Source of the DNA: Escherichia coli
Lineage (GTDB): Bacteria > Pseudomonadota > Gammaproteobacteria > Enterobacterales > Enterobacteriaceae
Length of the DNA stretch: 64,000 bases
Assembly (NCBI RefSeq): GCF_016026235.1
Contig: NZ_CP065613.1
Direction: 5' to 3' (one strand)
Part shown: positions 2,146-42,186 of the stretch, piece after piece
Layout of the letters: each line of letters opens with the position of its first letter
Numbering within the stretch: the stretch's first letter is position 1
Notes under the pieces: generated by a model
Database searches by the model: none
Seen by the model: the letters and a program-made list of their open reading frames with translations, nothing else
What the model was told of the DNA's origin: nothing
Position numbers and translations under genes: made by a program

Positions 2146-3843
2146 GTGCACGAAATATTCAACATGCTGCTGGCGGTCTTCGATCGGGCAGCGTTAATGC
2201 TTATCTGCCTGTTCTTTCTCATCCGTATCCGCCTGTTTCGCGAACTGTTGCACAAGTCGGCACACTCACCGAAAGAGTTGCTCGCCGTTACCGCCATTTT
2301 CTCGCTGTTCGCCCTGTTCAGCACCTGGTCCGGCGTTCCCGTAGAAGGCTCGCTGGTGAACGTACGTATTATCGCGGTGATGTCAGGCGGGATTCTGTTT
2401 GGCCCGTGGGTGGGCATCATTACCGGCGTGATTGCGGGTATTCACCGTTATTTAATTGATATCGGCGGCGTGACGGCGATCCCCTGCTTTATCACCAGCA
2501 TTCTGGCGGGTTGTATATCGGGCTGGATCAACCTGAAAATCCCCAAAGCACAGTGCTGGCGCGTCGGTATTCTCGGCGGCATGTTGTGTGAAACGTTGAC
2601 CATGATTCTGGTGATTGTCTGGGCACCAACTACCGAGTTGGGGATCGATATCGTCTCTAAAATCGGGATTCCAATGATCCTCGGCAGCGTCTGTATCGGC
2701 TTTATTGTGCTTCTGGTGCAAAGCGTTGAGGGCGAAAAAGAGGCCAGCGCCGCGCGGCAGGCCAAGTTGGCGCTGGATATCGCCAACAAAACGCTACCTC
2801 TGTTTCGCCATGTCAATAGCGAGTCATTACGCAAAGTTTGTGAAATTATTCGCGATGACATTCACGCCGATGCGGTGGCGATTACCAATACCGATCATGT
2901 GCTGGCCTATGTTGGCGTGGGTGAACATAACTATCAGAATGGCGATGACTTCATTAGCCCGACGACCCGTCAGGCGATGAATTACGGAAAAATCATCATT
3001 AAAAACAATGATGAAGCCCACCGCACACCAGAGATTCATTCCATGCTGGTGATCCCATTGTGGGAGAAAGGCGTTGTGACCGGAACGCTGAAAATTTACT
3101 ACTGCCACGCGCATCAGATAACCTCGTCATTACAGGAAATGGCGGTTGGTCTGTCGCAAATCATCTCCACGCAACTGGAGGTTTCACGCGCCGAGCAGCT
3201 ACGTGAAATGGCAAATAAGGCAGAGCTTCGCGCCCTGCAAAGCAAAATTAATCCCCATTTCCTGTTTAACGCTTTGAACGCTATTTCATCGTCAATCCGT
3301 CTGAATCCGGATACTGCTCGCCAGCTGATCTTTAATCTGTCGCGTTATCTGCGCTATAACATTGAATTAAAAGACGATGAGCAAATCGATATCAAAAAAG
3401 AGCTGTATCAAATTAAAGACTATATTGCCATTGAGCAGGCCCGCTTTGGCGACAAGCTGACGGTTATCTATGATATTGATGAAGAGGTGAATTGCTGCAT
3501 TCCCAGCCTGCTGATCCAGCCGTTGGTGGAGAATGCCATTGTCCACGGTATCCAGCCTTGCAAAGGTAAAGGCGTTGTCACCATCAGCGTTGCAGAGTGC
3601 GGCAATCGGGTACGCATTGCCGTGCGGGATACCGGGCACGGCATCGATCCAAAGGTGATTGAGCGGGTCGAAGCGAATGAAATGCCGGGCAATAAAATTG
3701 GCCTGCTGAATGTTCATCATCGCGTGAAGTTATTGTATGGCGAGGGGCTGCATATCCGCCGCCTGGAACCAGGAACGGAAATTGCGTTTTACATTCCTAA
3801 CCAACGCACCCCAGTCGCCTCACAGGCTACGTTATTGCTTTGA
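2146..3843 (+). CDS. ypdA: sensor histidine kinase, LytS-like (5TM membrane domain, GAF, HisKA/HATPase)
   Basis: 565-aa ORF; N-terminal multi-TM region, H-box ([10 protein letters not shown]) and ATPase motifs; operon with LytTR regulator. Confidence 0.85.
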
Positions 3844-3857
3844 GCCGGAGTGATATT

Positions 3858-4592
3858 GTGAAAGTCATCATTGTTGAAGACGAATTCCTGGCACAACAGG
3901 AACTGAGCTGGCTAATTAAAGAGCACAGCCAGATGGAGATTGTCGGCACCTTTGACGACGGTCTGGACGTGTTGAAGTTTTTGCAGCATAACCGCGTCGA
4001 CGCCATTTTTCTGGATATCAATATTCCGTCGCTGGATGGTGTGTTGCTGGCGCAAAACATCAGCCAGTTCGCCCATAAACCGTTTATTGTGTTCATCACC
4101 GCGTGGAAAGAACATGCGGTAGAAGCGTTTGAACTGGAGGCGTTTGACTACATTCTCAAACCGTATCAGGAGTCACGCATTACCGGGATGCTGCAAAAAC
4201 TGGAAGCGGCCTGGCAACAACAGCAGACCAGCAGCACGCCTGCCGCGACGGTAACGCGTGAGAATGACACCATTAATCTGGTGAAAGATGAGCGAATCAT
4301 CGTCACGCCAATTAACGATATCTATTACGCCGAAGCGCACGAGAAAATGACCTTTGTCTATACGCGGCGTGAATCCTACGTAATGCCGATGAACATTACC
4401 GAATTTTGCAGCAAACTGCCGCCGTCGCATTTTTTCCGCTGCCATCGCTCATTTTGTGTCAATCTGAACAAAATCCGCGAAATCGAACCGTGGTTTAATA
4501 ACACCTATATTCTGCGGCTGAAAGATCTGGATTTTGAAGTGCCGGTCAGCCGCAGCAAAGTTAAAGAATTCCGCCAGTTAATGCATCTTTAA
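3858..4592 (+). CDS. ypdB: LytTR-family response regulator
   Basis: GTG start with GGAG RBS; receiver domain (VIIVEDE, LDINIP) plus C-terminal LytTR domain. Confidence 0.85.
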   Translation: MKVIIVEDEFLAQQELSWLIKEHSQMEIVGTFDDGLDVLKFLQHNRVDAIFLDINIPSLDGVLLAQNISQFAHKPFIVFITAWKEHAVEAFELEAFDYILKPYQESRITGMLQKLEAAWQQQQTSSTPAATVTRENDTINLVKDERIIVTPINDIYYAEAHEKMTFVYTRRESYVMPMNITEFCSKLPPSHFFRCHRSFCVNLNKIREIEPWFNNTYILRLKDLDFEVPVSRSKVKEFRQLMHL

Positions 4593-5464: not shown

Positions 5465-7960
5465 TCAGAAGGTTAATTCTGTTTCCAGCAGCGTCAGGAT
5501 ACTTTGTGCATCTTGCGCGGCAAACAACGACTGGCGGAAGTTTTTATTCACCAGTTTACGCGCCAGCTGCGAGAAGACTTTCACATGATTCATCCCTTCG
5601 TTAGCACCCAGCGTCAGCATGATCACCAGTTCGACTTCGCCCATTTCTGACTGCCAGTCAACCGGTTTCGCCAGCCGGGCAATGCTGATACTGGAATGAC
5701 GGATCCACTGAGATTTGGTGTGCGGGATCGCCACGCCAAAACCAACGCCAGTGGTGACAATCTCTTCCCGCTGCCAGACATCCTCTTCCAGCTCGAACGG
5801 ATGTTCAGTGCGCCCGTTAACGCCGAGGTTACCGCACAGGAACTGGATCGCCTGCTCTTTATTGCTAAAGGCCTGATCAACGAAGATATTCTCCAGCGCC
5901 AGCAGCGGGCGAACGTCTTCTTCCGGCGTAAAGGCGGTGAGTAACGCTTCAATTTCCTGCGCGCTGCGACATTCACACGCCTGACGTGCCAGTTCCCGAC
6001 ACGCCTCGCTATCCAGTTGACGAAGCTGGCTTTTCACCGCCGGAATGCGCGGGCTACTCATACTCAGCTCATCCAGGCCCAACCCAAGCAGTAGCGGCAG
6101 ATAACGGCTTTCACCGCCCAGTTCACCGCAAATGCCTACCCATTTGCCCCGCTGATGCGCAGTGGTAACTATTTGCTGCAACATGCGCAGGAACGATGGC
6201 GTAATCGGGTTATATAGCGGCGATACGCGCGGGTTATTACGATCGACCGCATACAGATACTGGGTCATATCGTTGGAGCCGATACTGAAGAAATCGACCT
6301 CATCGCAGAAGTGATCGATGATGTAGCACACCGACGGCACTTCCACCATGATACCCAGCGTAATCGTCTCTGCATGACGCAGGCCATCGCGCTTAAGCTC
6401 AACGATCGCTTTTTGGATCTCGCCCTTCACCCATAAGATCTGATCGAGGCTGTGGACCATCGGGATCATCAACTGGGCGTTGCCGAAACTGGCGGCGCGC
6501 AAAATGGCCCGCAGTTGAGTGCGGAACAGGCCAGCAAATTCCGGGTAAATACGTACCGCGCGATAGCCGAGGAACGGGTTCTCTTCCTGGGGAATATTCA
6601 GATAAGGAATGCTTTTATCGCCGCCGATGTCCATTGTGCGGAAGATAATCGGCTTGTCGCCCGCTGCCAGTAGCACCTGCTGGTAGGCTTCAAATTGCTC
6701 CTGCTCGTCCGGCGCGCTGTCGCGATCCATATAGAGCATTTCGGTACGGAACAGCCCGACGCCTTCCGCGCCGTTGGCAAACGCGCCAGGCGCTTCCAGA
6801 GCGGTGCCAATATTCGCCGCGATATCAATACGCTTGTTATCACGGGAATAAGCCAGCTGCGCGGCAGCCTGCGCCTGTTGTTTTTGGCGTTTATCCGCCA
6901 GCGTCTGCGCGACCTGATAATAACCGCTCACCGCGTCATTCGGGTTAATCGCCAGCACGCCGCACTGGGCGTCAAGCACTGCAGGTTGCCCGGCATAACG
7001 GGCAATCGCATCCAGCGGCAGGCCGCTCAGTACCGGGATCGCCGAGGCGCGGGCCAGAATCAGGGTATGCGAGGTGCGCCCGGTTTTCTCCAGAATCATG
7101 CCCGCAAGATTTTTTAAATCCAGGCTTAAAAACTGGCTTGGGGTTAAATCCTCGGCCACCAGAATAGTCGGTTTTTCCAGCACCAGATTGTTGCGCGGCT
7201 TCAGTTCCGGCCAGGTAATATGCAGCAACTGTTCGCTAATATCGCGAATGTCGCTAACACGTTCGCGCAGATAATCGCTGGCAGAAGCAGAAAGTTTGGC
7301 GCAAACCTGCTCCATATTGCTGATGATCGCCGCCCCCAGCCCCTGATGCTGTTCTGTCATCAGGCGACGGATATTGCCTGCAAATTCATCATCCTGAATC
7401 AGCGACAAATGGGCGCTGAGGATAGTTTTGCTTTCGCCGTCACGCTCACGCAATTGCTGGTTCAGTTGCTCGGCAAGCGTTGCCAGACTGTGCTCCAGCC
7501 GGGTGGAATCTTGCGCACTGGCGGGGATTGCCCGATAACTGTCGAGGCTGTCGCTTTGTAACAGGGTCAGCGTACCCACGCCGACGCCGCTTGCCAGCAC
7601 ATTGCCGTACAGTAAATCCGGGTTAAGGCGGCTTAATGAACGCGGCAGCGGATGCGCCGTCAGTTCTGCCTGCGTAGGCTGAACGCTGTCGCTGTCGATA
7701 AAGCGCACCTGGATGTACTCTTCCAGCACGCGCCGCGCCTGCTCTTCATCGCTGCCGCTAATGTTCAGGCTGCAACTGTCATTAAATAGGGTGCCGGTGC
7801 CAATCAGCGCCAGCGAGCTTTTGGCATCGGCCTTTGCGTTCTGTCGATGGTTAATAAAAGTGATTTCGCTTTGCCACTGGCTGCACTGTTCTTTAAGTTC
7901 CCACGCCGGACGAGCATGTAGACCGTTAGGCAAAGGACAGAGAAATTGAATCGTTAACAT
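5465..7960 (-). CDS. fryA: PTS multiphosphoryl transfer protein (HPr-EI-IIA fusion), fructose-like PTS
   Basis: 831-aa ORF with PEP-utilising enzyme motifs (GGRTSHTLILAR, MVEVPS) homologous to PtsI plus HPr and IIA domains. Confidence 0.85.
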   Translation of the reverse strand: MLTIQFLCPLPNGLHARPAWELKEQCSQWQSEITFINHRQNAKADAKSSLALIGTGTLFNDSCSLNISGSDEEQARRVLEEYIQVRFIDSDSVQPTQAELTAHPLPRSLSRLNPDLLYGNVLASGVGVGTLTLLQSDSLDSYRAIPASAQDSTRLEHSLATLAEQLNQQLRERDGESKTILSAHLSLIQDDEFAGNIRRLMTEQHQGLGAAIISNMEQVCAKLSASASDYLRERVSDIRDISEQLLHITWPELKPRNNLVLEKPTILVAEDLTPSQFLSLDLKNLAGMILEKTGRTSHTLILARASAIPVLSGLPLDAIARYAGQPAVLDAQCGVLAINPNDAVSGYYQVAQTLADKRQKQQAQAAAQLAYSRDNKRIDIAANIGTALEAPGAFANGAEGVGLFRTEMLYMDRDSAPDEQEQFEAYQQVLLAAGDKPIIFRTMDIGGDKSIPYLNIPQEENPFLGYRAVRIYPEFAGLFRTQLRAILRAASFGNAQLMIPMVHSLDQILWVKGEIQKAIVELKRDGLRHAETITLGIMVEVPSVCYIIDHFCDEVDFFSIGSNDMTQYLYAVDRNNPRVSPLYNPITPSFLRMLQQIVTTAHQRGKWVGICGELGGESRYLPLLLGLGLDELSMSSPRIPAVKSQLRQLDSEACRELARQACECRSAQEIEALLTAFTPEEDVRPLLALENIFVDQAFSNKEQAIQFLCGNLGVNGRTEHPFELEEDVWQREEIVTTGVGFGVAIPHTKSQWIRHSSISIARLAKPVDWQSEMGEVELVIMLTLGANEGMNHVKVFSQLARKLVNKNFRQSLFAAQDAQSILTLLETELTF

Positions 7961-10121: not shown

Positions 10122-11123
10122 TTACAGGCTATCGATTAACAATTTGCCTTTGCGGAACATCATCAGACGCAGGAACACCACCATCAGCGCAGTTATGACT
10201 GCCCCCAGCGCGATCCCCGCCATATAGACGCCCAGGTTAGTGACCAGCGGCCATGCCCAGATAGCGGATTCCGGGAACCATTGCACTGCGCCCAGCCAGA
10301 CAGCGGCGGTTGAGCCGACAATCGCGCCGACCATATACGACGGAATGGCGGTGATGGGGCTTTCCAGCGCAAACGGAATCGCACCCTCACTAATCCCCAT
10401 AAAGGCAAGGAACATCGCGGTCTTACCCTGCGGATAAAGCTGAGCATTGAACAGGCGTTTGCCGGTTAAACGACGGTCGATAATGGTCGCCAGACCCAGA
10501 CCAATCGGCGGAATAACGATAGCGATAGAACGTGCGGTGACCGGTAATACGTGGTCAGTGGTAAAGCTGAAGGCAACAAAACCTGCGGCTTTGTTGATCG
10601 GGCCACCAAGGTCGATTGCTGTCGCCGCGGCGATCCCCATTGCGTACATCAGCGCGCCCTTCTCACCTGCAGCAGTCAGTACGGTACGGATACCGCCGTT
10701 GATCCAGCCGCCAAACGGGGTGATGACGTAGTACATCGCCAGCATGACAAAAATGGCGGAAAGAATCGGTAGCAAAAATGTGGTTTTGAACGCTAACAGG
10801 AAATCCGGTAACTGGATTTTCTGGTTCATCCATTTCACAAGGTAACCGGCAACGATAGAAATAATCAGCGCACCAATGAAGGTGGACGGCACCGGCGAAG
10901 AGGTCGCCCATTGCATAGTGCTGGGATCGAAGTTCAGCAGTTGCGTCGGCTGGGTAGACATCAAGCCGCCGATAAAACCAGCCGGGAACGCCAGTTTGCC
11001 ACCGATAGAGTTCGCCACAAAAGCAGCAAACATCGGAATGGCAAAACCAAACAACACGCCGCCGAAGGACTGCGACAGCCAGGCAAATTTCAGTAAGGAG
11101 AGGTCGAAACCGGAGAATTTCCC
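10122..11123 (-). pseudogene. fryC: PTS fructose-like EIIC, C-terminal portion (codons 83-415) cut off by IS insertion
   Basis: Frame continues from the IS junction through GKFSGFDLSLLKFAW... into the 311-aa ORF; joins in frame with the N-terminal fragment at 12416-12673 once IS and one TSD copy are removed. Confidence 0.85.
11112..11123. repeat. 12-bp target-site duplication GGAGAATTTCCC (low-coordinate copy)
   Basis: Identical 12-mer directly flanks both ends of the IS at 11124-12415. Confidence 0.85.
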
Positions 11124-25986: not shown

Positions 25987-26062
25987 GGGTCGTTAGCTCA
26001 GTTGGTAGAGCAGTTGACTTTTAATCAATTGGTCGCAGGTTCGAATCCTGCACGACCCACCA
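25987..26062 (+). tRNA. lysV: tRNA-Lys (UUU)
   Basis: GGGTCGTTAGCTCAGTTGGTAGAGCAGTTGACTTTTAATCAATTGGTCGCAGGTTCGAATCCTGCACGACCCACCA. Confidence 0.9.
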
Positions 26063-26066
26063 ATGT

Positions 26067-26094
26067 AAAAAGGCGCCCTAAAGGCGCTTTTTTG
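26067..26094 (+). terminator. intrinsic terminator after lysV
   Basis: GGCGCC-CTAAA-GGCGC hairpin followed by TTTTTT. Confidence 0.75.
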
Positions 26095-26170
26095 CTATCT
26101 GCGATTTGCGAAATTGCCTGATGCGCTTCACTTAGCAGACTACTATTTCCGGCAATTCCTGTCTCCTCAC

Positions 26171-27055
26171 CTACTGTGTCAATGCAGCCAACAGCTTAAC
26201 CATCGCGGGCGTCACCTGCTGTGTTTCATAAACAATATATAAATCTGCAGGGATGCGCTGTTTGAGCGGACGGAAAATGACACCTGGCCAGTTCATTTGT
26301 GCGTAGCTGTCCGCTATCAATGTGATACCAATGCCCATACTGACCATAGCGAGTACCGTTTGCGGTTCATTAACTTCGCGAATAACAACCGGTGAAAATC
26401 CCACCTGCTGGCAAACTCGCTGCAAAAAATCCCAGTCAGTGTAAACGGGCGGCATTGTAACAAAATACTCGTCACGTAGCGCTTCCAGCGGGACGGTGGA
26501 AAATGATGAGAGATGATGCTCTTCAGGCATCGCCACCAGAAACGCCGATTCATGCAACCGTAAGCTGGTAAAACCAGTCGGTGGTTCTGTCGCCATTCGC
26601 CAGATCCCGGCATCAAGTTCGCGGCGTTCCAGCAAGGCCATTTGCATCGCGGGCATCTTTTCGCGAAAAAGAACGTCAACGTTAGGATTTTCCCTGAGGA
26701 ATCGCCGCATAACCGGGCGCATCCGTCCCCACATTGCCGTTCCCACTACGCCGAGTTCAATCCGCCCTGCTTCTCCCCGACCTATTTGTTCAACCCGAGC
26801 CAATACATTATTAGCATTCACCAGCAATCGACGCGATTCTTCCATCAAGATTTTGCCCGCGTGTGTCAGTACGACGCTGCGCGAATGGCGAATAAAAAGC
26901 TGCGTGCCGAGTTGATTTTCCAGTTCTTTAATATGAATACTGAGCGGAGGCTGAGACATATTTAAACGCGCTGCTGCGCGGCCAAAATGCAACTCTTCCG
27001 CTACGGCAAGAAAATAACGGAGCAACTTAAGATCTGTTCTGTATACGCGTTCCAT
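26171..27055 (-). CDS. xapR: LysR-family transcriptional regulator (xanthosine operon activator)
   Basis: 294 aa from MERVYRTDLKLLRYFLAVAEELHFGRAAARLNMSQPPLS (LysR HTH). Confidence 0.85.
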   Translation of the reverse strand: MERVYRTDLKLLRYFLAVAEELHFGRAAARLNMSQPPLSIHIKELENQLGTQLFIRHSRSVVLTHAGKILMEESRRLLVNANNVLARVEQIGRGEAGRIELGVVGTAMWGRMRPVMRRFLRENPNVDVLFREKMPAMQMALLERRELDAGIWRMATEPPTGFTSLRLHESAFLVAMPEEHHLSSFSTVPLEALRDEYFVTMPPVYTDWDFLQRVCQQVGFSPVVIREVNEPQTVLAMVSMGIGITLIADSYAQMNWPGVIFRPLKQRIPADLYIVYETQQVTPAMVKLLAALTQ

Positions 27056-27158
27056 AATTAAGTGCTCCATATAATAAATACATCGTATTAAATTATCATG
27101 GCATAAAGTATTTCACCACCAGATATCCGACATACATAAACACGGTAATGACTCCAAC

Positions 27159-27662
27159 TTACTGATAGTGTTTTATGTTCAGATAATGCCCGATGACCTT
27201 GTCATGCAGCTCCACCGATTTTGAGAACGACAGTGACTTCCGTCCCAGCCTTGCCAGATGTTGTCTCAGATTCAGATTATGTCGCTCAATGCGCTGAGCG
27301 TAACGCTTGCTGATAACGTGCAGCTTTCCCTTCAGGCGTGATTCATACAGCGGCCAGCCATCCGTCATCCATACCACGACCTCAAAGGCCGACAGCAGGC
27401 TCAGAAGACGCTCCAGTGTGGCCAGAGTGCGTTCACCGAAGACGTGCGCCACAACCGTCCTCCGTATCCTGTCATACGCGTAAAACAGCCAGCGCTGACG
27501 TGATTTAGCACCGACGTAGCCCCACTGTTCGTCCATTTCAGCGCAGACAATCACATCACTGCCCGGTTGTATGCGCGAGGTTACCGACTGCGGCCTGAGT
27601 TTTTTAAGTGACGTAAAACCGTGTTGAGGCCAACGCCCATAATGCGTGCACTGGCGCGACAT
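27159..27662 (-). CDS. insB: IS1 InsB (transposase C-terminal part, made as InsAB' by -1 frameshift)
   Basis: 167-aa [19 protein letters not shown]...; A6C slippery run at the insA/insB overlap. Confidence 0.9.
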
Positions 27663-27856
27663 CCGACGCCATTCATGGCCATATCAATGATTTTCTGGTG
27701 CGTACCGGGCTGAGAGGCGGTGTAAGTGAACTGTAGTTGCCATGTTTTACGGCAATGAGAGCAGAGATAGCGCTGATGTCCGGCAGTGCTTTTGCCGTTA
27801 CGCACCACGCCTTCAGTAGCGGAGCAGGAAGGACATCTGATGGAAATGGAAGCCAC
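27581..27856 (-). CDS. insA: IS1 InsA (transposition inhibitor / transposase N-terminal part)
   Basis: 91-aa [46 protein letters not shown]. Confidence 0.9.
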
Positions 27857-28152
27857 GCAAGCACCTTAAAATCACCATCATACACTAAATCAGTAAGTTG
27901 GCAGCATTACCCTTTTTCTGTAGGGTGGAATCTAACGCCTTTTTATAGCGAGGTTGTCCCGGCTCTTACCAATACACTTTTCTCACGCATTCAATAGCGA
28001 TTCGATATCGATGGATTTATATCTTTCCTCTATTAATCCACGGTAAAAACTGTATTGGCGATATTAATTCCTTTGCATTAACAATATGTCGTTTTTAGCA
28101 AACCACTTTATTAAGCAATCTACTAATAACGATCGGCATAGGGAATTATGCT

Positions 28153-28917
28153 ATGAAAAAACATCTTTTAACTCTGACACTTTCCTCTATATTAGCGATA
28201 CCTGTTGTATCTCATGCAGAATTTAAAGGCGGTTTTGCAGATATCGGCGTGCATTATCTGGACTGGACCAGCCGGACTACCGAAAAATCGTCGACCAAAT
28301 CACACAAAGATGATTTTGGCTATCTTGAATTTGAAGGTGGCGCTAACTTTAGTTGGGGAGAAATGTACGGGTTCTTCGACTGGGAAAACTTCTATAACGG
28401 TCGCCATAATAAACCAGGTAGCGAGCAGCGTTATACCTTTAAAAATACCAACCGTATTTACCTGGGTGACACCGGATTTAATTTCTACTTGCATGCGTAT
28501 GGCACCTACGGTTCTGCGAATCGCGTGAATTTCCACGACGATATGTTCCTGTACGGTATCGGCTACAATTTCACCGGCAGCGGTTGGTGGTTCAAACCGT
28601 TCTTTGCTAAGCGTTATACAGATCAAACCTATTACACTGGCGACAACGGCTATGTCGCCGGCTGGGTTGCAGGTTACAACTTTATGCTGGGCAGCGAGAA
28701 ATTCACTCTTACCAACTGGAACGAGTACGAGTTTGACCGTGACGCTACCTATGCAGCGGGTAATGGCGGTAAAGAAGGGCTGAATGGCGCAGTTGCACTG
28801 TGGTGGAATGCAACATCACACATTACTACGGGGATTCAGTATCGATATGCGGATGACAAACTGGGCGAAGATTTTTACCAGGATGCGATAATCTACTCCA
28901 TCAAATTTAACTTCTGA
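28153..28917 (+). CDS. yfeN: putative outer-membrane beta-barrel protein (Tsx/OmpG-like)
   Basis: 254-aa ORF with signal peptide and C-terminal aromatic residue (…IKFNF). Confidence 0.75.
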   Translation: MKKHLLTLTLSSILAIPVVSHAEFKGGFADIGVHYLDWTSRTTEKSSTKSHKDDFGYLEFEGGANFSWGEMYGFFDWENFYNGRHNKPGSEQRYTFKNTNRIYLGDTGFNFYLHAYGTYGSANRVNFHDDMFLYGIGYNFTGSGWWFKPFFAKRYTDQTYYTGDNGYVAGWVAGYNFMLGSEKFTLTNWNEYEFDRDATYAAGNGGKEGLNGAVALWWNATSHITTGIQYRYADDKLGEDFYQDAIIYSIKFNF

Positions 28918-39415: not shown

Positions 39416-40841
39416 TAATGCCAGTCAGTTAAGCAACTGACTGGCTCTTTTTCGGGGCTGTGGGGTATTTCCAGGGCCTCTCCTTTACCACTCTCGGGAA
39501 GGCCCTTCCCCTTCTCGTCGGTAATTTCACAAGTTGTCCCATACTTGCAAGATCGCGCATCAGCTCCGGTATACGTCCCGGTGAAGCGCCCTGCAATGTC
39601 ATCAGCATTCTCATCACCATTCCGCATGATTCTGAGAAACTCAGTTGATTCGGCCAGTAACCTTTCAGATGTTCCGCCATTTTAATCATCTGATATCTCA
39701 CCAGATTATAAGCCAGTAAGACACCCCACAGCTCTTGCTCCACAAGCTCCGGCTTTTTACTTCTCAGCGTCAGCCTGCTCAGTTGCATCGTCTGTTTTAT
39801 CTCCCTGTATCCCAGTTCGATTTCCCAGCGATGACTGTACAGATCCGCCATTTCTCCTCTGGGGAAGCGCATGGCGTCCGTCATCGACGTCAGCAGATGG
39901 CAGACTTTTCCTTTGCGCGTCACGGTCAGCAGGCGGGCTGTCACTTCATTTCCCAGTCCCGGCCACTTTTTTCGTGCCTGCGGGCTGGTTTTCAGCTTCA
40001 CCAGATGATCGCCTTTACCCAGTTTTCTGAGCTCTTCATATTGCGCTCCCTTTCTGAGAGGTATCATCCAGTGGCGGTGTTCTCCCGCCAGGCTCCAGGC
40101 ATTTAACAGTCCCAGTGAGTAATAACCTTTATCCATTAACGTCAGAGTGTTATCGCCGGTTTGTTCTATAAGTTGCTCAGCAAGCTCATTTTCGCTGTTC
40201 TTCATCGTGCCGAAGGCTGCAGCCGTCAGCAGATGGCTGGTCAGTTCCATCTGGCAGACCATTTTGACCTGCGGGTAGAGCGCCGGGTTCCCGGCATGTG
40301 TCTGGCGGGGGAAGGCTGCATCGTTCTCTGGTGTATCCGGTGTGCGCCAGAACACACCATCGATGGCCAACAGGGTCAGGCCGCACCAGTGCGGATGCGG
40401 CGTGGCGTTATGCCAGAGCTGCGCTGTTTTCGTGAACACGCGGCGGACAGCCTCACTTCCCAGGCGCTGGCGGGCCTGAATAACGGCACTGGGGGCAACG
40501 AAGGGGCGATTGCCCGGCAGCATGATGTCCAGGCGATTCACAATCTGGTGAAGAGGTTCTTTACGCTCAAGCGCCATGCCAACAATACACCAGACCATCA
40601 TTTCGAGGGGAAGACGGCGCTTGCGTAGCGTTACAGTACCTGATTCGGCAAGGCAACGAGAGATGAGTTCGGGGTCGAGGTAATCCCCCAGAGAAGTCAG
40701 TGGGTTACGCAGAGAATCGTAACGGGATACCAGATCAAGAGCCTGTCCAATGTGCATAAAAAAATCCGGAAACAAGTGAGCGTTTCCGGATTCTTACACA
40801 GCCACTGGATCGGTCAACTGATCCTTAACTGATCGGCATTA
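39416..40841 (-). mobile_element. IS4, 1426 bp
   Basis: Ends TAATGCCAGTCAGTTAAG... and ...CTTAACTGATCGGCATTA; 442-aa IS4-type transposase; 12-bp TSD; length equals canonical IS4. Confidence 0.9.
39429..40757 (-). CDS. insG: IS4 transposase
   Basis: 442 aa from [19 protein letters not shown]...; DDE/YREK motifs ([15 protein letters not shown]). Confidence 0.9.

Positions 40842-41751: not shown

Positions 41752-42186
<435 letters not shown>

Follow-up and report, generated by a model that had tools for sequence, protein, structure and literature searches.

The xap locus in the window

The window, by which is meant the whole 64,000-nucleotide stretch of Escherichia coli DNA analysed here, carries an intact xapR and an intact yfeN with a single copy of IS1 between them, and the xanthosine genes xapB and xapA are missing from that interval. 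XapA is a xanthosine phosphorylase and XapB a xanthosine permease. The features of the locus, in window positions, are as follows.

26171-27055, minus strand: xapR, intact, 294 aa (NF007439 at 532 bits)
27096-27143, minus strand: remnant of xapX, the last 15 codons and the stop, by translation
27135-27143: left 9-bp flank of IS1, CATAAACAC (K-12 2,522,557-2,522,565), with no repeat on the right
27144-27166: IRR, the inverted repeat at the left end of IS1, identical to the other end at 20 of 23 positions
27159-27662, minus strand: insB frame, 167 aa, linked to insA by a -1 frameshift
27581-27856, minus strand: insA, 91 aa, GTG start
27599-27605, minus strand: A6C slippery motif in the overlap of the insA and insB frames, read from the sequence
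27889-27911: IRL, the inverted repeat at the right end of IS1, identical to the other end at 20 of 23 positions
27904-27877, minus strand: promoter-like site, mostly inside IRL
27912-27920: right 9-bp flank of IS1, CTTTTTCTG (K-12 2,524,886-2,524,894)
27912-28152: retained xapA-yfeN intergenic DNA, 241 of 248 bp, aligning to K-12 from 2,524,886
28153-28917, plus strand: yfeN, a Tsx-family channel, intact (NF008574 at 454 bits)

Alignment of the window to the K-12 chromosome (NC_000913.3) placed both end-points to the base. The left flank ends at K-12 position 2,522,565 and the right flank restarts at 2,524,886, leaving exactly 2,320 bp (2,522,566-2,524,885) unaccounted for. Both flanks are collinear and co-oriented with K-12 at 99.5-99.6% identity and IS1 sits exactly at the joint; alignment to the related strain FDAARGOS_943 likewise finds the interval gone and IS1 at the joint. 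The lost interval comprises xapB and xapA in full, the first 37 codons of xapX and 7 bp of the xapA leader, and the xapA/xapB sequence of K-12 2,522,566-2,524,885 has no alignment anywhere in the 64-kb window. An earlier, sequence-only reading of this DNA had held that xapB-xapA were missing between xapR and yfeN and that alignment to a genome carrying xapABR would map the ends of a deletion. The K-12 alignment maps precisely that interval and supplies the two ends.

The left break lies inside xapX, which encodes 52 aa and is located between xapB and xapR; the gene was overlooked by the sequence-only reading and is annotated in many strains, not in K-12. Intact XapX matches TIGR03510 at 64 bits. 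On the right, read on the xapA strand, the joint falls inside the motif AAGGA directly upstream of the xapA start codon, which we read as the xapA ribosome-binding site. The two end-points fall within the AT-rich intergenic stretches that bracket xapB-xapA, with G+C contents of 35.5% and 35.9%.

What is left of the xapABR regulon is an intact XapR activator with neither xapA nor xapB beside it. The xapR gene is 99.6% identical to that of K-12 at the DNA level and its exact protein is a widespread allele. The distance from IS1 to xapR had been given as 72 bp. This holds to within a base for the in-frame ATG at 27070 that was used for it (73 bp), but not for the K-12-annotated ATG at 27055, which is 88 bp away.

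The IS1 copy

The element is a complete, 768-bp IS1 on the minus strand at 27144-27911, an IS1F-like variant whose transposase is read from right to left. Its outermost letters are GGTAATGACTCC, starting at 27144, and GGCAGCATTACC, finishing at 27911. Its length of ~768 bp, imperfect repeats of ~23 bp, insA and insB joined through A6C and match to NF033558 place it in the IS1 family. The InsB part scores 145 bits against this profile (IS1 family transposase; cut-off 100), and InsA matches the N-terminal part of the same profile at 89 bits as well as the zinc-binding domain NF050000. The anatomy as re-read here and the profile match agree with the earlier description of a full-length IS1 with both inverted repeats, insA/insB and the A6C site.

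The window copy shares ~91% identity with the IS1A-type copies in the comparison, and an IS1 of E. coli LHM10-1 matches it at all but 2 of 768 positions. When the window copy is set against the copies in loci L003, L004, L028, L031 and L040 the differences are grouped in blocks, and the IS1 of strain 5392 is near-identical to it over the first 480 bp and divergent over the remainder. Block-wise differences of this sort indicate probable mosaics, formed by recombination or conversion between variants.

Flanks without a target duplication

Simple insertion of IS1 typically leaves a direct duplication of 8-9 bp. The flanks CATAAACAC (27135-27143) and CTTTTTCTG (27912-27920) are unlike, as had already been noticed from the sequence, so this copy lacks it. 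The other IS copies in the window serve as an internal control, and all three retain their direct duplications:

11123-12416: ISEc60, with a 10-bp duplication
19054-20347: ISEc60, with a 10-bp duplication
39416-40841: IS4, 1,426 bp (NF033592 at 305 bits), with the 12-bp duplication CGCCCATCGGCG

The joint was also inspected for short repeats. A 4-bp overlap at the right joint, produced by BLAST extension, proved to be TACC versus TATC, so there is no real microhomology. A 10-nt word, GACATACATA, occurs close to each deletion end-point, a few bases inside it: at window positions 27129-27138 and again at K-12 2,524,872-2,524,881, in the deleted DNA next to the right end-point. Random pairs of 40-mers from the locus share 10 nt in ~0.16% of cases, a comparison made post hoc. 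Read outward, the flanks of IS1 agree at 12 of 18 positions. Neither the GACATACATA pair nor this likeness is in register with the joints, and both may reflect IS1 target preference or chance. A deletion between the GACATACATA repeats was considered and rejected, as it would give another joint and would keep the IS1 duplication; the presence of the word at both end-points is kept as an unexplained coincidence.

Several other features of the window differ from K-12 or from its relatives. The two ISEc60 copies (IS4 family) are in mutually inverted orientation; one splits fryC and the other occupies the nupC-pdeA spacer, where K-12 has IS186C. The transposase frame of the first is apparently split into ORFs of 145 and 289 aa. 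In FDAARGOS_943 the ~6.6-kb segment between the ISEc60 copies is inverted. IS4 lies in the crr-pdxK spacer, its duplication inside a palindromic, terminator-like sequence. Near 42181 the window lacks 961 bp of K-12 (2,537,705-2,538,665), and with them yfeS; no IS sits at that joint. The eut operon is free of cryptic prophage CPZ-55, by which it is interrupted in K-12, and eutB and eutA are contiguous at ~61880-61902. At 26000-26105, downstream of lysV, the window has one copy fewer than K-12 of the RtT repeat, which is annotated elsewhere as an sRNA; a ~95-bp block (3373-3467 of the K-12 locus) is missing there, as in several other strains.

Relatives, assembly and the order of loss and insertion

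The closest relative found, FDAARGOS_943, has an intact xapA-xapB-xapX-xapR locus and no IS1. Mismatches to the window number 2 in 5,649 bp of the left flank and 5 in 9,036 bp of the right (7 in 14.7 kb), which corresponds to flank identities of 99.95-99.97%. The window and FDAARGOS_943 have both ISEc60 insertions in common, in fryC and downstream of nupC, and therefore share a recent ancestor. By these sequence comparisons the deletion is recent and lineage-specific.

As IS1 is a multicopy repeat, collapse of its copies during assembly could in principle have dropped xapAB. We regard such an artefact as highly improbable. The same structure is found on a 3.45-Mb contig of GCA_031665325.1 that has a single mismatch over 12.9 kb; an independent draft contig, taken from a sample and sharing the rare YfeR allele, runs through the right junction seen here and ends inside IS1; and analogous structures are present in eleven other complete genomes.

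Loss of xapAB is also part of the natural variation of the species. In ~1,345 of 5,426 complete E. coli genomes, about a quarter and including O157:H7, the whole xapR-xapX-xapB-xapA-yfeN block is absent and a flxA-like gene beside tRNA-Lys lies between lysV and yfeR. This block-wide absence at tRNA-Lys makes the xap module an accessory segment at a tRNA locus. The allele resembles the window in its want of xapA and xapB, but it also lacks xapR, xapX and yfeN and involves no IS; it is an alternative locus content.

The frequency of genomes without xapAB raises the question of whether the two genes had already gone at this joint before IS1 arrived. Such an order of events deserves almost no credence. 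The xapAB-less genomes have a different structure, with the flxA-like gene in place of the block from xapR to yfeN, and the nearest relative is intact. An artificial IS1-less junction, made of 150 bp from each flank, was compared with the 5,426 complete E. coli genomes and none (0 of 5,426) matches across the joint. A later insertion would moreover leave a 9-bp duplication, and it is contradicted because the window IS1 has none. The sequence-only reading had recognized that related genomes with the same joint and no IS1 would overturn its deletion; with FDAARGOS_943 intact and no such joint found in this set, the deletion stands.

IS1 at the xap locus in other strains

A query of xapR joined to yfeN-yfeR, which detects genomes with these genes no more than 1.9 kb apart, picked out 11 of the 5,426 complete E. 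coli genomes, each with a single IS1 joining xapR to yfeN; a duplication is present in 0 of the 11. A twelfth genome with xapR near yfeN has an IS5-like element between them. Placed on the coordinates of the K-12 locus (L001), the deletion end-points of the window and the 11 genomes fall on few positions:

4429/4430: four genomes
4566/4570: the window and PEC408
6887: the window and PK6, with the same right junction
6911-6913: three genomes
7359/7360, 7396/7397 and 7464/7465: further end-points

One junction is often common and the other variable: 4430 occurs with 7359, 7396 and 7397, and 6887 with 4566 and 4861. Combinations of this kind, as read from the junction sequences, are typical of an IS that stays anchored while the deletions beside it vary. 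Most of the xap deletions are likely to be independent, because the IS1 variants of the deletion strains differ by 4-9% and their genomic backgrounds differ.

Three of the end-point clusters coincide with simple IS1 insertions elsewhere, in which 8-9 bp are duplicated and xapAB are intact:

4422-4430: NCTC11023
4562-4570: 600055
6888-6895: ST131 strain 5392, with the 8-bp duplication TTTTTTTG, at the same site as CTTTTTCTG

The end-points in the window are thus at, or no more than 4 bp from, sites used by other IS1 copies. Simple insertions at the xap locus are known from ST131-5392, 600055, NCTC11023, B19695 and a group of ~53 genomes that includes strain ST361. They resemble the window in element, mostly in orientation, and in the use of the same or neighbouring targets, and differ in that the 8-9 bp duplications and xapAB are kept; they represent the state before a deletion.

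Two further strains are of note. F467 (L042, NZ_OY754409.1) has two IS1 in inverted orientation around xapX-xapB-xapA. The first is a simple insertion in the 5' end of xapR with a 9-bp duplication, and the second has no duplication and is associated with a 419-bp deletion into yfeN; in addition, xapB carries a frameshift. In LHM10-1 (L043, NZ_CP037903.1, 466082-467970) the near-identical IS1 has the same end flanked by CTTTTTCTG, at a position between gspA and an N-terminally truncated gspK. It looks like another IS1-linked deletion. This flank suggests that the CTTTTTCTG 9-mer may be a favoured IS1 target. The series across strains amounts to a small, teaching-quality data set on IS1 target preference and adjacent deletion.

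Mechanism of the deletion

The structure in the window was probably produced by IS1-mediated adjacent deletion, in which a simple insertion is followed by intramolecular transposition and xapB-xapA are removed. IS1 would first have inserted at one of the two recurrent target sites that bracket xapB-xapA. The transposase would then have joined the other end of IS1 to the second site, 2.3 kb away on the same molecule, and the interval would have been lost together with one copy of the original duplication, leaving a single IS1 with unrelated flanks. We infer that the second joint was made by transposase rather than by homologous recombination, and the order of events likewise.

The supposed earlier state, with IS1 at one site, a duplication and intact xapAB, occurs in other lineages, at identical or nearby sites, and was found in none of the isolates of this lineage that were searched. 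Exact-protein contexts (XapR, the FDAARGOS_943 XapA allele and the window alleles of YfeN and YfeR) were searched for lineage intermediates and none was found; the loci recovered were still intact, already carried the complete deletion, or lay on draft contigs that break off within IS1. The two-step history proposed for this lineage is therefore drawn from analogues from other lineages, because no lineage isolate with IS1 at either site and xapAB present was found.

The right site (CTTTTTCTG, K-12 2,524,886-2,524,894) is slightly more likely to have been the starting anchor, because an independent simple insertion and an independent deletion use exactly that site. An IS1 there would already uncouple xapAB from their promoter, and their later loss would therefore be neutral. 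Against this, a site that IS1 prefers could just as readily have served as target in the second step. An IS1 anchored on the left with xapAB still present would show its right end beside CATAAACACAATGG.

Deletions of this sort have a long history. Classical IS1 deletions of the gal region of E. coli K-12 are reportedly described in the literature of the 1970s-80s and explained by a model of intramolecular transposition. As in the reading favoured here, IS1 and one flank were kept, neighbouring DNA was removed up to a new site chosen by the transposase, and no duplication was left; there is no difference in kind, the gal deletions being laboratory-selected and the present one natural. Read as an adjacent deletion, the event in the window is a textbook case in an IS-rich E. 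coli lineage, of a kind long known. In the literature library that was searched, we found no publication linking IS1 to an xapAB deletion; in PMC3446313 xapA is merely among the genes mutated in parallel chemostat populations.

Adjacent deletion and recombination between IS copies are both named as common causes of lost duplications among E. coli IS elements (PMC11708052), and the second of these would yield a product identical, base for base, to that of the first. IS1 would have inserted twice in the same orientation, in xapX and at the xapA ribosome-binding site, before RecA-dependent recombination between the copies excised xapB-xapA and left one IS1. This is possible, if doubtful. The lineage is rich in IS1, with at least 40 IS1 pieces in FDAARGOS_943, each end-point coincides with a simple insertion site of another strain or is no more than 4 bp away from one, and F467 holds two IS1 at the locus at once, though inverted. 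The route nevertheless requires two insertions in the same orientation within 2.3 kb, and none of the loci examined has two direct IS1 flanking xapAB. The window IS1 is also a standard variant, its 2 differences in 768 from the LHM10-1 copy giving no sign of a chimera, an argument that is powerless if the parental copies were identical.

A third route, in which a new IS1 arrived together with the deletion in one step, with no resident IS1 and no duplication, is very unlikely. Events of this type have been proposed for some IS5 and IS481 cases (PMC11708052) and would fit the want of an intermediate in this lineage. The same study found that 14 of 14 IS150-linked deletions in an evolution experiment were insertions followed by adjacent deletion, and simple-insertion parents exist for three recurrent xap-locus sites, both of which speak against a single step. 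The IS150 adjacent deletions of that long-term experiment are like the window in having an IS without a duplication at the deletion joint. They are unlike it in that IS150 belongs to the IS3 family and the intermediates were caught in a time series, whereas those relevant to the window come from unrelated strains only.

Predicted consequences and possible selection

With the phosphorylase XapA and the permease XapB gone, the strain is predicted to be unable to use xanthosine by this route and hence not to grow on it, and XapR is predicted to be an orphan activator without its target genes. The predicted phenotype is a minor one, and xapAB are in any case absent from a quarter of E. coli genomes.

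In published work xapR is constitutively expressed and the xapAB promoter has two XapR sites; the promoter is still responsive to xanthosine when xapAB are deleted and xapR is kept (PMC7205307). By inference from that study, the 241 bp retained in the window would hold the putative xapA promoter and its XapR sites, pointing into IS1. This region points towards IS1 with the orientation of insA/insB and xapR, and read-through induced by xanthosine into IS1 and xapR is therefore plausible. Machida et al. (1983), a paper cited in PMC12428005, reportedly found that read-through from flanking DNA represses IS1 cointegration. There is also a weak promoter-like match at 27099-27071, directly upstream of xapR and within the retained 88 bp, so xapR may keep a promoter of its own.

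The putative xapA promoter is retained, facing IS1 insA/insB and then xapR, in 5 of the 12 deletion structures (the window and the 11 genomes). It is unlikely that the loss of xapAB, or the new promoter-IS1-xapR fusion, is under selection at the xap locus. Were it so, xanthosine could control the expression of the IS1 transposase or of xapR or, alternatively, the loss of XapA and XapB could be advantageous in IS-rich gut lineages, and selection would explain why about ten independent IS1 deletions have removed the same two genes.

The importance of the finding is limited. It is transposon-driven gene loss of an ordinary kind that recurs at the xap locus. An absent target duplication proves a reliable flag for such loss. 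The window offers a natural case, resolved to the base, of an expanding IS1 population that prunes an accessory catabolic operon and leaves behind an orphan regulator and an equally orphan promoter.
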